Shown here piece after piece: positions 2,995 through 7,844 of a stretch of DNA of 8,078 nt. The first letter of the stretch is position 1, and each line of letters begins with the position of its first letter. Below the pieces are notes generated by a model. That model was given only the letters and a program-made list of their open reading frames with translations. It was not told the DNA's origin and did not search any database. The stretch comes from a virus (Duplodnaviria; Heunggongvirae; Uroviricota; Caudoviricetes). The stretch lies in IMG/VR virus record IMGVR_UViG_2563366974_000015; one strand, given 5' to 3'. Position numbers and translations under genes: made by a program.

Positions 2995-3022
2995 AGCCCG
3001 CCGGTTCAGGCGGGCTTTTTTG
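2995..3022 (+). terminator. Rho-independent terminator downstream of lom
   Basis: 8-bp perfect stem AGCCCGCC (2995-3002) / GGCGGGCT (3009-3016), 6-nt loop GGTTCA, followed by a T6 run ending at 3021. Confidence 0.6.
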
Positions 3023-3032
3023 TGGAGTGGAT

Positions 3033-4619
3033 ATGGCAGCAGTAAAAATCTCAGGTGTGCTGAAAGATGGTGCGGGAAAACCAATACAGAACTGCACTAT
3101 TCAACTGAAGGCAAAGCGTAACAGCACCACGGTACTGGTGAACACGGTGGCCTCTGAAAATCCGGATGAAGCCGGGCGTTACAGCATGGATGTTGAGTAT
3201 GGTCAGTACAGCGTCACCCTGCTGGTTGAAGGTTTTCCGCCTTCACATGCCGGGACCATTACCGTCTATGAAGGTTCCAGACCAGGTACGCTGAATGATT
3301 TTCTCGGTGCCATGACGGAAGATGATGTCATGCCGGAGGCATTGCGTCGTTTTGAGGCAATGGTGGAAGAAGCGGCACGCAACGCCGAAGCCGCCTCTCA
3401 GAGCGCAGCAGCGGCAAAGAAATCCGAAACTGCAGCGGCATCATCGAAGAACGCGGCGAAAACCTCAGAAACAAATGCAGCTAACAGCGCACAGGCGGCA
3501 GCGTCCTCGCAGACTGCATCGGCAAACTCCGCGACAGCAGCCAAAAAATCAGAAACCAACGCGAAAAATAGCGAGACAGCCGCAAAGACGAGCGAAACCA
3601 ACGCAAAGTCCAGCCAGACGGCAGCGAAAACCAGCGAAACGAATGCCAAAGCCAGTGAAACTGCGGCAAAAAACAGCCAGGTTGCAGCAGCCCAAAGCGA
3701 GAGCGCGGCAGCCGGTTCTGTGACTTTAGCAGCTGGATCAGCAACTGCTGCGGCTAACAGCCAGAAAGCTGCGAAGACGAGTGAAACTAACGCAAAGTCC
3801 AGCCAGACGGCAGCGAAGACCAGCGAAACGAATGCCAAAGCCAGCGAAACTGCGGCGAAAAACAGTCAGGATGCAGCAGCCCAAAGCGAGAGTGCTGCAG
3901 CCGGTTCTGCAAGCGCGGCGGCTGCTTCTGCCACTGCATCAGCCAACAGTCAAAAAGCAGCAAAAACCAGTGAAACCAACGCAAAGGTGAGCGAAACAGC
4001 GGCTGCGAACTCAGCGAAAGCATCGGCAGCAAGCCAGACGGCAGCTAAAGCAAGCGAAGATGCAGCCAGAGAGTACGCAAGCCAGGCTGCGGAGCCGTAT
4101 AAATATGTCTTACAGCCGCTGCCTGATGTGTGGATACCATTTAACGATTCACTGGATATGATTACGGGCTTTTTGCCATCATATAAAAAGATTGTTATTG
4201 GTGACGACGAAATAACGATGCCTGGCGACAAGATTGTTAAGTTTAAACGTGCATCGAAAGCAACCTATATTAACAAATCTGGTGTGCTGACAGAGGCTGC
4301 CATTGATGAGCCACGATTTGAACGTGATGGCCTGCTTATTGAGGGGCAAAGAACTAATCTTCTGCTTAATTCAACAAATCCATCTAAATGGAATAAGTCA
4401 GGCAATCTGGAACTCACAGAAATATCCACGGATTCTTTTAATTTTACTTATGGCAGATTTACTGTACAAGATTCGCTTATTGGTACGAGAAAAGCGATTA
4501 ACATCGTCAGGCTGTCTTCGAGTACAGGGGGGGATGTTACTTGTGATGAAGAAAAGGAGGTCACTATATGCTGTGGAATAAAAAGTGAAGAAGATAATAG
4601 GGGCGGTTGTATTTTATAA
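3033..4619 (+). CDS. stf: Side tail fibre protein Stf: lambda-like N-terminal attachment domain plus fibre repeats; C-terminal part appears truncated or disrupted
   Basis: ATG 3033 is preceded by GGAG at 3024-3027; the ORF track begins at an in-frame GTG at 3027. The N-terminus MAAVKISGVLKDGAGKPIQNCTIQLKAKRNSTTVLVNTVASENPDEAGRYSMDVEYGQYSV closely matches lambda Stf as remembered. The central region is Ala/Ser/Thr-rich with SETNAK-type repeats. The ORF ends at TAA 4617-4619, but the same frame reopens after a second stop (TAG 4632-4634). Confidence 0.8.
   Translation: MAAVKISGVLKDGAGKPIQNCTIQLKAKRNSTTVLVNTVASENPDEAGRYSMDVEYGQYSVTLLVEGFPPSHAGTITVYEGSRPGTLNDFLGAMTEDDVMPEALRRFEAMVEEAARNAEAASQSAAAAKKSETAAASSKNAAKTSETNAANSAQAAASSQTASANSATAAKKSETNAKNSETAAKTSETNAKSSQTAAKTSETNAKASETAAKNSQVAAAQSESAAAGSVTLAAGSATAAANSQKAAKTSETNAKSSQTAAKTSETNAKASETAAKNSQDAAAQSESAAAGSASAAAASATASANSQKAAKTSETNAKVSETAAANSAKASAASQTAAKASEDAAREYASQAAEPYKYVLQPLPDVWIPFNDSLDMITGFLPSYKKIVIGDDEITMPGDKIVKFKRASKATYINKSGVLTEAAIDEPRFERDGLLIEGQRTNLLLNSTNPSKWNKSGNLELTEISTDSFNFTYGRFTVQDSLIGTRKAINIVRLSSSTGGDVTCDEEKEVTICCGIKSEEDNRGGCIL
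3582..3909 (+). repeat. In-frame tandem direct repeat inside stf (two 139-bp copies, 189-bp period)
   Basis: Copy 1 (3582-3720) and copy 2 (3771-3909) align base for base with about ten mismatches. Both encode AAKTSETNAKSSQTAAKTSETNAKASETAAKNSQ.AAAQSESAAAGS. Shorter SETNAK-type units recur from about 3400 to 4070. Confidence 0.85.
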
Positions 4620-4805
4620 GACCATGATGGTTAGGAGGTCAGGTTTTCAGTAGGTACTGCACGCATTAACTCAACAATTGTAATTGTTAGCAATAGAAGT
4701 GATGCAGGCCGTGTTATAGCAAAGTCTGTTAAAGATGATGTAACTGGCTGGATATTTTTTGAGGCTACAATAAATGCACATAAAACAGAAAACACGGTTG
4801 GTGGG

Positions 4806-5411
4806 ATGGTTCAGTACGCTCCTGTAAAAGGTTCAGGTACAGCATCTGGAGACTATCTGGATATCGCAACTCCACAAGTGGAAGGTGGATCAAGTGCTTC
4901 GTCATTTATTGTAACTGATATAACTGCAAGCACTCGCGCAAGCGATATGGTGACAGTCCCAATCAAGAATAACCTTTATAATCTTCCTTTTACGGTTCTT
5001 TGTGAGGTACATAAGAACTGGTATAAAACGCCAAATGCAGCACCGCGTGTTTTTGATACCGGCGGTCATCAAACCGGAGCGGCTATTATTCTTGGCTTCG
5101 GTCGTTCAACAGATTACGACGGATTTCCTTATTGTGATATAGGTTTGGCTAACAGACGGGTAAACGAAAACGCATCGCTTGAAAAAATGGTTATGGGGAT
5201 GCGTGTAAAGTCAGATCAGTCTACGTGCTCAGTAAGTAACGGGCGTATATCCAGCGAAAAGAAAGCCACATGGTCCTATATTCAGAACTCCGCAATTATC
5301 CGTATTGGAGGCCAGACTACAGCCGGGTTGCGTCATTTATTTGGTCATGTCAGGAATTTCAGAATATGGCACAAGGCATTGACTGATGCTCAGATGGGGG
5401 AGTCAATCTAA
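4806..5411 (+). CDS. LamG/concanavalin-A-like domain protein; probably the detached C-terminal receptor-binding part of the tail fibre
   Basis: 201-aa ORF from ATG 4806, but the same frame is stop-free back to 4635 with no canonical start codon in that stretch, and it is the stf frame. The C-terminal signature IRIGGQTTAGLRHLFGHVRNFRIWHKALTDAQM is typical of LamG-like jelly-roll lectin domains. The ribosome-binding site at 4806 is weak (GGTTGGTGGG directly abutting the ATG). Low-GC region. Confidence 0.5.
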   Translation: MVQYAPVKGSGTASGDYLDIATPQVEGGSSASSFIVTDITASTRASDMVTVPIKNNLYNLPFTVLCEVHKNWYKTPNAAPRVFDTGGHQTGAAIILGFGRSTDYDGFPYCDIGLANRRVNENASLEKMVMGMRVKSDQSTCSVSNGRISSEKKATWSYIQNSAIIRIGGQTTAGLRHLFGHVRNFRIWHKALTDAQMGESI

Positions 5412-5692
5412 TGAAAGATTTAACACTCAAATTTGCAGACAGGGCCGACTTTTCGGCCTTTATGGATAGCATTGGCTATTATGATGACGAGTCGATGCAG
5501 GATGATATTCTTATTGACGTGATAGGTAACGTGTACAAAGAAACCGGAGAACTGACTGAAGATGGCGAACCGGTATGTGTTAAGGAAGATGGATATTTTG
5601 TAAACGTGCGCATCATTAATGATGCAAAAAAATCGTTAATATTCGATGAATACGCGGTTGTAGTTGAACATCAACTTCGTGGCTGGATGTGA
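5411..5692 (+). CDS. Hypothetical small acidic protein (93 aa); possible tip-specific assembly factor
   Basis: The start overlaps the upstream stop by one base (TAATG at 5409-5413), suggesting translational coupling. Acidic composition (many D/E). No family recognised. Confidence 0.55.
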   Translation: MKDLTLKFADRADFSAFMDSIGYYDDESMQDDILIDVIGNVYKETGELTEDGEPVCVKEDGYFVNVRIINDAKKSLIFDEYAVVVEHQLRGWM

Positions 5693-5701
5693 GGGAGACA
5701 A

Positions 5702-6406
5702 ATGGCTACATCGACAGTAATTCCAGGAGACATCACCACGTTAAAGGGAGATGTCAGTAAAGCCAAGGAAGATATTTCCTCAATTAACGGAAAAGTATCA
5801 ACGCTTCAGGCTGATATGACCAGTGCAAAGCAGGATATCAGCACCAGATACACAAAAACTGAAGTTGATAATAAGCTGAAAAACAAACTGGAAGTGAACG
5901 CTCTGGAAAGCGGTCGTTATGGTGGAGATTTTTACCCGTTGACTGGCCGTGAAGCGTTTTATTTGTGGGGATTGGGCACGACTACAGCGGCGGCAAACCT
6001 TTATCTTAATCCTGACCCCGCAATTTCGTCTGTGCTGCGGTCAACATCGTCTATCCGCTATAAACATTCAGTAGAGACAATAGATTCAGAGCACGCCGAT
6101 CTCATTTTCAGGATGCGCCCTGTGTGGTACAGGTCACAATGCGAAAATGACAGGCGTGACTGGGGATTCTACGGATTGATTGCCGAGGAAGTAGGAGAAA
6201 TTGCCCCTCAGTTTGTACACTGGCGACCAGCTAACGAAGATGATGCACCGGAAGCTATTTCCAGCAATGGCCTTGTTGCCGAAGGTGTAATGTACGAACG
6301 TCTGGTTGTTCCACTGATTCACCATATCCAGAAGCTGACTGAAAGAGTTGATGAACTTGAGTCAGAATTAAAGTTGTTATCCGTTTCCCGAAGCGATATC
6401 GGATAA
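5702..6406 (+). CDS. Short tail-fibre-like protein: N-terminal coiled-coil segment plus C-terminal intramolecular chaperone (peptidase S74-like) domain
   Basis: Shine-Dalgarno GAGGGAG at 5691-5697 precedes ATG 5702. Candidate catalytic Ser-x-x-Arg-x-Lys motif SSIRYK (residues 116-121, nt 6047-6064), followed by WGFYGLIAEEVGEIAPQFVHW and GLVAEGVMYERLVVPLIHHIQKLTERVDELESEL, which match the conserved blocks of self-cleaving C-terminal chaperone domains of phage fibres and spikes (endosialidase / T5 L-shaped fibre type). The N-terminal region has heptad-like spacing. Confidence 0.72.
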   Translation: MATSTVIPGDITTLKGDVSKAKEDISSINGKVSTLQADMTSAKQDISTRYTKTEVDNKLKNKLEVNALESGRYGGDFYPLTGREAFYLWGLGTTTAAANLYLNPDPAISSVLRSTSSIRYKHSVETIDSEHADLIFRMRPVWYRSQCENDRRDWGFYGLIAEEVGEIAPQFVHWRPANEDDAPEAISSNGLVAEGVMYERLVVPLIHHIQKLTERVDELESELKLLSVSRSDIG

Positions 6407-6416
6407 AGGAGGAGTA

Positions 6417-6710
6417 ATGGATATAACACCTTTCCTTCATGCGCTTTGTGCTGTGGCTGCGCAGCTACTGATTGGTCTTTTTACCGGGAACTGGGCTTAC
6501 GGGGCGATAGCTGGTTGTACGTTCTTCATTGCGCGTGAACACACCCAGGCAGAATATCGCTGGATTGAAATGTTCGGGCATGGCAAGCGAATGAATATGC
6601 CGTGGTGGGGCGGTTTTGATCCGCGCGCGTGGGATGTGGCAAGCCTGATGGATTTTGCTGTGCCGGTGGTGGCGTGTCTGCTGGTCTGGCTGTTGGTTAA
6701 TCGTGGGTGA
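6417..6710 (+). CDS. Hypothetical small inner-membrane protein (97 aa, 2-3 predicted transmembrane segments)
   Basis: Strong Shine-Dalgarno AGGAGGAG at 6407-6414 before ATG 6417. Hydrophobic stretches FLHALCAVAAQLLIGLFTGNWAYGAIAGCTFFIA and LMDFAVPVVACLLVWLLV flank a charged loop. GC content is higher than in the upstream cassette. Confidence 0.55.
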   Translation: MDITPFLHALCAVAAQLLIGLFTGNWAYGAIAGCTFFIAREHTQAEYRWIEMFGHGKRMNMPWWGGFDPRAWDVASLMDFAVPVVACLLVWLLVNRG

Positions 6711-6720
6711 AAAAAGGTGA

Positions 6721-6840
6721 GCTGTATATGCAACGGAGGAAGAAACCTCGTTGCTGGAAGCCTGGAAGAAGTATCGGGTGTTGCTGAACCGTGTTGATAC
6801 GTCAACTGCACAGGATATTGAATGGCCAGCACTGCCGTAG
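6721..6840 (+). pseudogene. tfa: 3' remnant of the tail fibre assembly gene tfa (last ~39 codons, no start codon)
   Basis: The frame opens just after TGA 6718-6720 and reads [39 protein letters not shown], ending at TAG 6838-6840. This matches the conserved C-terminal end of lambda-type Tfa proteins as I recall it. No upstream coding sequence or start codon is present. Confidence 0.7.
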
Positions 6841-6937
6841 GGTAAAACATATAAATTCTATAATTAGATGTATCTTTCCATTTACGGCAAGGAAGGGGGC
6901 TTGGAAGACGTAAAGCATCTCACACCGAGATTATTTT

Positions 6938-7528
6938 TTATATGTCAGGTGTCTGAAGTTTTGCTTTGGCTCTTAAAATGGTTTGCCGCGAGGTTTTGAA
7001 TTCCCGGGCAATGGCACTTATACTTACACCTGACTTAATTCGTTCGAATACCACCTGTTTCTGTTCTTCATTTAACACAGGTGGTCGACCAAAACGTTTC
7101 CCTGCGCCGCTGGCTCTTACTATCCCGGAATGAGTGCGTTCAAGTAAAAGGTCTCGTTCAAATTCAGCGACTGCTGAAATTACGTGCATCATCATTTTTC
7201 CTGTTGGACTGGTCAGGTCAATGCCCCCCAATGCTAAGCAATGCACTCTGATACCTGTTTCGGTCAGTTGTTCCACTGTTTTCCTGATATCCATTGCATT
7301 ACAACCAAGGCGATCCAGTTTTGTCACAATCAATTGATCACCACATTTCAGGCGAGCAAGCAACCGGTTAAAACCAGGACGCTCACTGGTTGCTGCTGAG
7401 CCGCTAATGTGTTCTTCGATTATTTGCTGAGGTTTGATTTTAAAACCTGCACTTTCGATTTCCCGGCGTTGATTTTCGGTGGTCTGATCCAGCGTTGATA
7501 TCCGACAGTAAGCAAAAATTCGAGACAT
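6938..7528 (-). CDS. pin: Serine recombinase of the DNA-invertase/resolvase family (Pin-type, as found beside tail-fibre genes in Rac/Qin prophages)
   Basis: 196-aa ORF with N-terminal catalytic-serine motif [13 protein letters not shown], the KLDRLG motif and a C-terminal helix-turn-helix ([19 protein letters not shown]). Length and sequence match my recollection of PinR/PinQ. It is convergent with the fibre genes and adjacent to the tfa remnant. Confidence 0.88.
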
Positions 7529-7844
7529 AGTGAGACTCTATACGAAATTGGTGTTCATATCATAATGCATCTCAGAAAATAATTTTGATTATTTTTGTGC
7601 ATATTTGTATGTACACGTTCGAAAATAAACGAATGCGTATGCAACCCCGTAACTTTGGTGAGACCCAAAATCGATTTTGTGAAAAATGGCTTTAACTCGG
7701 TTTGTTTTTCGAGTTCCGGGCGGACTCAAGGAAGAAGAATAGTGTTGCGTGTTATTTTAACCAGATTTCAAGTTGTTTGGTCGTGGAAAAGTGGAGCAAA
7801 ATGTTGTTAAAGTGGAAAAATGATAAAAAAGTAAGTTTATTATA

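Follow-up and report, generated by a model that had tools for sequence, protein, structure and literature searches.

The gene at positions 6417-6710 of IMGVR_UViG_2563366974_000015, an 8,078-nucleotide stretch of viral DNA from IMG/VR (Caudoviricetes; hereafter the window), encodes a protein of 97 residues that is predicted to lie in the inner membrane as a bundle of three helices. We call this gene, and its product, T. The best explanation of our observations is that T is an accessory protein of the inner membrane, carried along with the receptor-binding protein (RBP) cassettes of phages: it lies directly 3′ of an RBP gene of whatever type, in siphoviruses, myoviruses and podoviruses. As to its activity, the reading that fits most of the facts would have T act on the cytoplasmic membrane, in a manner that may be useful both late in infection and in the uninfected cell. 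In the window, T and the RBP gene that precedes it are placed as follows.

6417-6710, plus strand: T, an ATG open reading frame (ORF) for a predicted three-helix inner-membrane protein of 97 residues; identical to WP_000355601.1; PHROG 1443
6407-6414, plus strand: the Shine-Dalgarno sequence of T, AGGAGGAG, directly after the upstream TAA and four bases before the ATG (from the sequence and the duplex energy)
5702-6406, plus strand: a 234-residue tail-fibre protein with a Peptidase_S74 intramolecular chaperone (PF13884, E 4.4e-6; phrog_3299, E 1.5e-140)

The linkage of T to RBP genes is seen in widely different phages and prophages, in which the gene upstream of T is:

The window and the prophages Tritos and Perceval: side-fibre cassettes
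JEP4 (P22-like): a P22-type tailspike gene, with a 4-nucleotide (nt) overlap
phiHAP-1 (P2-like): Tfa, with a 4-nt overlap
A Comamonas prophage: a 2520-residue J protein, then a 72-residue ORF
Comamonas nitrativorans and Pigmentiphaga: an mtd-like target gene of a diversity-generating retroelement (DGR), with bAvd and the reverse transcriptase (RT) gene downstream
Desulfovibrio: a pectate-lyase tailspike with an S74 domain, with a 0-nt gap
Leclercia: Tail_spike_N proteins

Behind these wholly different RBPs, in hosts that range from alpha- to delta-proteobacteria, T retains 45-60% identity and an invariant loop. A further sample comprised 76 viral contigs chosen by a codon pattern that the E. 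coli allele does not match, 72 of them with enough sequence upstream of T. A co-directional ORF lies no more than 50 nt upstream in 45 of the 72, and 17 of these 45 overlap T by 4 or 1 nt. Together with 11 ORFs found 51-400 nt upstream they make up 56 annotated upstream neighbours, mostly of tailspike and tail-fibre families (phrog_1171, 16; pectate-lyase beta-helix, 13; Peptidase_S74, 7). The downstream neighbours fall into 45 clusters among 66 and share no common identity, so that what T is stably linked to is the 3′ end of RBP genes. For the same reason we rejected the idea of a conserved operon partner, the more so as orphan copies of T, described below, stand alone. Nor do the S74 chaperone and T form a general module, since the JEP4 tailspike is unlike the 234-residue S74 protein and T also follows Tfa, J and the mtd-like gene. 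In the two DGR loci (L116 and L117, 4785-8404; Comamonas nitrativorans and Pigmentiphaga humi), T lies between the mtd-like target and bAvd, and two bAvd-RT pairs stand in tandem.

Does T assist the assembly or maturation of the fibre or tailspike next to it? Such a role would account for the close association of T with RBP genes and the coupling of its translation to theirs, and for the frequent company of fibres with S74 chaperones. However, the same T follows J, Stf, tailspikes, Tfa and a DGR target, and the copies in Perceval and Tritos are 96-100% identical while their upstream genes differ. The virulent T1-like phage 6947, moreover, keeps its S74 fibre with only a dead fragment of T behind it (L158, 3965-4120), and no fibre gene is found near the orphan copies. 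Given partners that are unrelated, the loss of T from 6947 and orphans that are fibre-less, we consider an assembly role extremely unlikely. A second decayed fragment follows the tailspike of Kuttervirus KFSST3 (L159, 3980-4105), and both fragments are unannotated. They are probably scars of the transfer of RBP cassettes from temperate phages and, being decayed, indicate that these two virulent phages have no need of T. The Aeromonas jumbo phage ACP1 has an intact 87-residue copy, located 5′ of its tailspike.

Database comparisons show T to be a real and strongly constrained gene rather than a chance ORF. It matches phrog_1443 over its full length (E 5.8e-59, residues 1-96 against positions 1-96 of 97 in the profile), 575 homologues were retrieved in a database search, a profile search gave 444 clusters at 50% identity, and dN/dS values are 0.09-0.39. 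Nearly all of these clusters are stand-alone proteins of about 65-145 residues, mostly 90-110. The sequence family is thus one already catalogued as hypothetical (PHROG 1443; WP_000355601.1): all 575 homologues bear that label, and T is annotated 'hypothetical protein' in strain S88. The only other significant PHROG match is to phrog_34165 which, like phrog_1443, is of unknown function. Nothing in Pfam, NCBIfam or PADLOC matched T (PADLOC-DB v2, 0 families at E up to 1), and Pfam gave no match for any of 10 diverse relatives; a line for the PhoR N-terminal family (E 0.059, 14 bits against a cut-off of 27) was dismissed as membrane-composition noise. A profile search of PDB sequences returned nothing meaningful, fold searches returned only generic helical bundles, and literature searches for a function, structure or publication on the family found nothing. 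Holin families were unmatched in Pfam and PHROG, and there was no sequence match to Cor or Llp in Pfam, PHROG, NCBIfam or PADLOC. With no Pfam match at threshold, for T or for the 10 diverse members, none was obtained to GtrA, Gtr or acyltransferase families.

The AlphaFold2 model of T, a confident one, is a three-helix membrane bundle (pLDDT 95.5, pTM 0.82), and hydropathy marks hydrophobic segments at residues 3-23, 26-39 and 74-95. The predicted elements, all on the plus strand, are:

6426-6485, plus strand: membrane helix 1 (residues 4-23), with the conserved face P5, H8, A12, Q16, G20 and G24 (AlphaFold2 and conservation)
6492-6575, plus strand: helix 2 (residues 26-53), with G29, G33 and C34 in its membrane part, followed by the near-invariant AREHTQAEYRWI beyond the membrane
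6576-6635, plus strand: aromatic and charged loop (residues 54-73), G.GKR.NMPWWGGFD.R.W (conservation)
6636-6704, plus strand: membrane helix 3 (residues 74-96), with conserved S76, D79, P83 and C87 (conservation, hydropathy and AlphaFold2)

The initial annotation of this locus described a small membrane protein of 97 residues with two hydrophobic segments, belonging to no recognised family and having no lipobox, so that it was not Cor-like. The ORF is exactly as given there, and both hydropathy and AlphaFold2 predict membrane helices, but the first hydrophobic stretch forms a helical hairpin and there are therefore three helices (4-23, 26-53 and 74-96) rather than two segments. On the family the description stands, only PHROGs of unknown function and no named membrane protein family having been found in the searches above. 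It stands also on the lipobox: as read from the sequence, the N-terminus MDITPFLHALCAV has neither a basic n-region nor a [LVI][ASTVI][GAS]C motif, and no match to Cor or Llp was found.

The conservation of T is unusual among small phage membrane proteins. In an alignment of 53 relatives at 56-78% identity, D2, H8, Q16, G29, R40, E41, Q44-W49, G56, R58, P62, W64-F67, W72 and P83 are invariant, and even the most distant relatives keep a core of H8...GRE..QAEYRWI...R58...PW...F...W72...S76..D79...P83. The conserved residues recur every 3-4 positions (P5-H8-A12-Q16-G20-G24, G29-G33-F37-E41 and S76-D79-P83-C87), a periodicity that would be explained by packing faces with a polar network inside the bundle.

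The orientation of the bundle bears on where the invariant loop acts. The chain ends ...VWLLVNRG, two to three residues past helix 3, and phage copies have no charged tail. Orphan copies carry K/R in the turn between helices 1 and 2 and have basic C-terminal tails, such as ANRRRPRRR; these features, together with the very short, acidic (D2) N-terminus, argue for an N-out/C-in topology in which the invariant loop would be periplasmic. We favour this orientation only slightly over the other.

Copies of T also occur as lone chromosomal genes, away from any phage module, in the following contexts:

Aeromonas (four genomes of three species): pirin, T, RIO1 kinase
Leclercia (five genomes): prlC side, T, a MetE-like gene, followed by three other conserved genes
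Sphingomonads: recN-ligA, T, prmA, or a PhyH-family gene divergent from T
One alphaproteobacterial metagenome-assembled genome: T directly after pnp

For these orphan copies dN/dS is 0.09-0.39 at dS 0.4-2, with the exception of a pair of Aeromonas media strains (dS 0.014) that are too similar for an informative value. They are therefore functional genes retained by the host. In orphan copies H42 is replaced by Q.

How T is expressed in its phage context can be judged from the junction with the fibre gene and from published transcriptomes. The upstream gene ends with a TAA at 6404-6406, leaving a gap of 10 nt, and T has a single ATG start (MD...) with no dual start. The duplex of its Shine-Dalgarno sequence with the 3′ end of 16S rRNA has a predicted energy of −11.6 kcal/mol, compared with −2.4 to −8.5 kcal/mol for the other gene starts in the window. 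The initial annotation called it the strongest Shine-Dalgarno of the window; this holds among gene starts, but an internal non-start site in the side tail fibre gene stf (AAGGAGGT, ∼4548-4562, near 4555) is stronger, at −12.3 kcal/mol, than that of every gene start. It was also right that the base composition of T departs from that of the upstream cassette: T is a 294-bp GC island. The GC content is 0.541 in T, 0.433 in the fibre cassette (4050-6406) and 0.436 in 6711-6937, and the GC3 of T is 0.551 compared with 0.37-0.43 for the flanking genes. In simple consensus scans no promoter-like site for T was found on the plus strand at 5300-6417, and no terminator-like site at 5300-7700. No intact gene of the late tail-fibre operon lies beyond T, which is probably read from the late transcript and efficiently translated.

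E. coli LF82 carries three T-bearing prophages, Tritos, Perceval and Gally, for which RNA-seq has been published (PMC9928086). This is a different strain from that of the window, but its T copies are identical or nearly so, the Tritos protein being identical; the lysogen counts refer to LB cultures only. Normalised counts for T are 18.3 in Gally, 11.5 in Perceval and 10.4 in Tritos (PMC9928086, S1 table), compared with a median of 15.6 and a moron cut-off of 78 for the Gally prophage (PMC9928086). No LF82 copy is listed among the morons in Table 1 of that study, and all are at prophage background in LB-grown lysogens (PMC9928086). In Gally and Perceval, T increases in step with the tailspike or fibre genes over the five conditions of that study, the log2 fold change in Gally being 4.9 for T and 4.4 for the tailspike (PMC9928086). 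The junctions themselves differ: Perceval has the same tight AAGGAGG junction as the window, while in Gally, by eye, a terminator-like hairpin and a 240-nt AT-rich spacer precede T. The regulatory layout thus varies among phages, and none of the layouts gives lysogenic expression in the LF82 data.

The initial annotation noted that small membrane proteins in moron positions are often superinfection-exclusion or receptor-masking factors. The observations above bear directly on one reading of this, in which T would be a moron, expressed in lysogens, that masks or inactivates the receptor of the adjacent fibre in the manner of Cor or Llp. T adjoins an RBP gene, and the cor and llp genes sit beside RBP genes too; its GC3 differs from that of its neighbours, and the Gally layout, judged by eye, is moron-like. 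Like T, Cor (phi80, N15, T1, HK022) and Llp (T5) are small envelope proteins encoded next to RBP genes in both temperate and virulent phages. They are, however, outer-membrane lipoproteins specific for one receptor, FhuA, whereas T has no lipobox or signal peptide, is predicted to be a three-helix inner-membrane protein, has no sequence match to them and is conserved regardless of the type of RBP. Morons such as lambda lom and bor and those of HK97 share with T an atypical GC content and a place at the distal end of the late region, but each of them has a promoter and a terminator to itself and is transcribed in the lysogen. The window scan gave neither a promoter nor a terminator belonging to T, and the check on lysogen transcriptomes that the annotation had suggested places the LF82 copies at prophage background in all three layouts (PMC9928086). 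The lom gene of the window, which lies between terminator-like hairpins at 2320-2339 and 2995-3016, does have the textbook moron arrangement, unlike T. The same protein, moreover, follows unrelated RBPs in unrelated hosts, which is hard to reconcile with the masking of one particular receptor, and several copies often share a genome. With T predicted to be in the inner membrane, indifferent to the RBP, present in multiple copies and silent in lysogens, receptor masking is unsupported and we regard it as highly improbable.

We favour instead, as a tentative proposal that may well turn out otherwise, the idea that late-made T gives receptor-independent protection against incoming phage tails. 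T would form a three-helix bundle with the polar residues H8, Q16, R40, E41, S76 and D79 lining the helix faces, and its Trp/Arg-rich loop, REHTQAEYRWI...GKR.NMPWWGGFD, would probably lie at the periplasmic surface of the cytoplasmic membrane. There it could make that membrane refractory to a second assault: incoming tails would be kept from delivering a genome or damaging the membrane, at a receptor-independent step, and the lysis clock of the cell already infected would be guarded. Uninfected cells could be shielded in the same way in lineages that have a self-expressed orphan copy. The linkage to RBP genes is most simply explained, in the main, by hitch-hiking, RBP cassettes being the most exchanged of phage modules, with a 3′ end that tolerates cargo; T may also serve as a conserved 3′ homology for swapping a variable cassette against the conserved stf N-terminus. 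A possible model for a receptor-independent block to genome entry is offered by T4 Imm, P22 SieA and HK97 gp15, which are likewise small integral inner-membrane proteins, gp15 also being encoded inside the tail operon. T differs from these in having no detectable homology to them, in its background expression in LF82 lysogens, and in being far more conserved and widespread. T resembles several known small RBP-adjacent membrane proteins and differs from each in the defining features that were tested.

Several points weigh against such protection. No experiment ties the family to phage resistance, and it is unmatched in PADLOC. The exclusion proteins already known are fast-evolving, and their production is usually early or lysogenic, as with Imm, SieA and gp15; T is highly conserved, and its copies in LF82 lysogens are at background. 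Polylysogens with up to 7 copies indicate that T does not prevent the acquisition of T-bearing phages, and we know of no precedent for a single mechanism that blocks entry of siphoviruses, myoviruses and podoviruses alike. A plain count of K/R residues over 103 members (5.3 in the loop against 0.8 in the turn and tail) favours the opposite topology, since the loop itself holds about 5 K/R. Finally, the Tritos copy stays flat while the adjoining fibre genes rise 70- to 230-fold (PMC9928086). Between that fibre gene and T (L271, 4956-5000) a GC-rich hairpin followed by a T-run, GGGGCCGAGCGCCCCGTTTTATT, can be seen by eye, unscored by the terminator scan; this element may explain the flat signal, and filtering of multi-mapping reads may contribute as well.

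Extended to the family as a whole, receptor-independent protection would make the T proteins pan-proteobacterial protectors of the inner membrane, repeatedly domesticated by Aeromonas, Leclercia and sphingomonads as a single-gene defence, with the buried polar network and the periplasmic Trp/Arg loop stopping siphovirus, myovirus and podovirus tails alike. This is a speculative extension, and we think it fairly unlikely.

The main rival to protection, and one with real evidence in its favour, is a role in the timing of lysis, as an accessory holin, an antiholin or some other regulator made in step with the last component of the virion. Of the small inner-membrane proteins that phages are known to make late, most serve in lysis, and the holin genes of T7 (17.5) and T4 (t) follow, respectively, fibre gene 17 and gene 38. 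T is comparable with these RBP-adjacent holins and with the class I holins lambda S105 and P22 gp13 in its size of about 100 residues and its three predicted helices, for which N-out/C-in is slightly the likelier orientation. Like the RBP-adjacent holins it is expressed late, from a slot just after a tail-fibre gene, and its translation is coupled to that of the upstream gene. Where lysis genes follow tail genes, T abuts them: it adjoins a T7-lysozyme-like amidase gene in two loci (L210 and L230) and overlaps a lysozyme gene in another (L160). In a Comamonas testosteroni prophage (L006, 6001-7521), 4-nt overlaps link T, a protein with three transmembrane segments, one with two such segments and an SLT-like soluble protein, an arrangement that resembles a lysis cassette joined directly onto the tail genes. 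Yet every lysis cassette inspected contains another holin candidate, on which ground we rejected T as the sole holin, and T stays with the RBP gene where the lysis module is separate, as in lambdoid, P22-like and P2-like phages; no lysis gene is among the annotated genes of the window. Phage copies of T, ending ...LLVNRG, have neither the charged C-terminal tail nor the dual start of holins, and no holin family matches in Pfam or PHROG. A 35-residue loop that is invariant across four proteobacterial classes is also unlike holins, and stand-alone chromosomal copies under purifying selection are hard to explain in these terms. We judge a lysis function rather improbable.

The conservation of T looks enzyme-like, with ionisable residues (H8, R40, E41, E46, R58 and D79) gathered at one membrane interface, and it could instead be a small intramembrane enzyme or modulator of the envelope. 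It would act on a lipid-linked glycan intermediate, a lipid or peptidoglycan, in a conversion accompanying tailspikes and fibres that target glycans. Tailspikes of depolymerase type are enriched upstream (the pectate-lyase beta-helix and Peptidase_S74 families noted above), and orphan copies are retained by hosts. The place of T in P22-like phages, between the tailspike and integrase genes, is the one that holds gtrABC and oac in P22 and Sf6. On the other side, T has no Pfam match whatever and hence none to GtrA, H42 is replaced by Q in the orphans, and T is unexpressed in LF82 lysogens. To our knowledge sphingomonads have no lipopolysaccharide, and their possession of T therefore means that the target is not O-antigen as such. 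An enzymatic function is, in our estimate, distinctly unlikely.

T is among the commoner uncharacterised prophage genes of E. coli. It is present in 1906 of 5426 complete genomes (35%), with a median of 2 copies and a maximum of 7, always annotated as hypothetical, and 57 of 3934 copies are on plasmids. Among sequenced phages it occurs in lambdoid coliphages, the P22-like JEP4 and Gally, a ∼108-kb phage, Halomonas phage phiHAP-1 and Aeromonas phages, including jumbo phages of 235 kb. A scan of one genome per species found it in Escherichia, Leclercia, Silvania, Pantoea, Aeromonas and Halomonas; in Comamonas, Acidovorax and Pigmentiphaga; and in Sphingomonas/Sphingomicrobium, Devosia, Chelativorans and Desulfovibrio. 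The family thus spans the alpha-, beta- and gamma-proteobacteria as well as Desulfovibrio, four proteobacterial classes in all. Its deep conservation and repeated retention as a lone chromosomal gene imply a defined molecular activity at the cytoplasmic membrane. Once identified, this activity could reveal a general step of phage genome entry that can be blocked, or alternatively a new kind of lysis control or a new small membrane enzyme. T is abundant, deeply conserved and readily testable. It also marks the 3′ edge of exchangeable RBP cassettes, which should be useful for the annotation of tail fibres, the prediction of host range and the engineering of fibre swaps.

By its gene content and by comparison with S88, the window comes from a lambdoid E. 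coli prophage, of which it covers the distal late region. It reads, in order, the 3′ part of J, lom, stf, a 93-residue ORF, the 234-residue fibre protein (whose gene product RefSeq names 'tail fiber domain-containing protein'), T, a tfa remnant, a Pin-type invertase and ydfK. T therefore has the position first ascribed to it, between the fibre cassette and the tfa remnant. Over bases 6300-6900 the sequence agrees at 100% identity with S88, APEC O1 and other strains, in which the prophage adjoins prfC; over the whole window the identity to S88 is 98%, with the differences concentrated within stf. The features that flank the fibre gene and T are:

2995-3016, plus strand: terminator-like hairpin 3′ of lom (hairpin scan)
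3027-5411, plus strand: side tail fibre gene stf, interrupted in the window (PF08400, E 5e-67)
5411-5692, plus strand: 93-residue protein of unknown function inside the fibre cassette (PHROG match, phrog_1361)
6730-6840, plus strand: 3′ remnant of a tail-fibre assembly gene (tfa pseudogene), which RefSeq calls 'incomplete; missing N-terminus' in the identical S88 sequence
6938-7528, minus strand: Pin/Hin-type serine invertase with Resolvase and HTH_7 domains, convergent with T

To reach stf and T, transcription has to pass the hairpin that follows lom. Near pin, a consensus pattern for the inversion site (crossover) was unmatched and long inverted repeats were not found, and we rejected an invertible fibre segment that includes T accordingly. 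The invertase and the tfa remnant (6730-7528) look like relics of an invertible segment for tail fibres, overwritten by the present cassette.

The 93-residue protein could be a fibre-specific chaperone or adaptor. Proteins of phrog_1361, of 92-93 residues, recur directly 3′ of a long fibre gene inside fibre cassettes. They are found upstream of T in other Escherichia loci also (cluster c35; L088 and L089), and in Tritos (L271, 3627-3908) and Perceval (L270, 4710-4988).

In the window stf consists of two ORFs, 3027-4619 and 4806-5411 (530 and 201 residues), compared with a single ORF of 792 residues in S88. The differences from S88 number 161, most of them within ∼4480-4800, where all 20 indel positions also lie. 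Either the distal segment here is divergent or recombinant and is now a pseudogene, or the break is a sequencing error. The internal AAGGAGGT site is positioned just upstream of this break. A repeat region of stf rich in Ala, Ser, Thr and Lys (3300-4050) has an extreme AT skew of 0.5-0.6, and the gene contains internal direct repeats, 3567-3815 and 3756-3986, that are ∼83-84% alike when aligned to S88.

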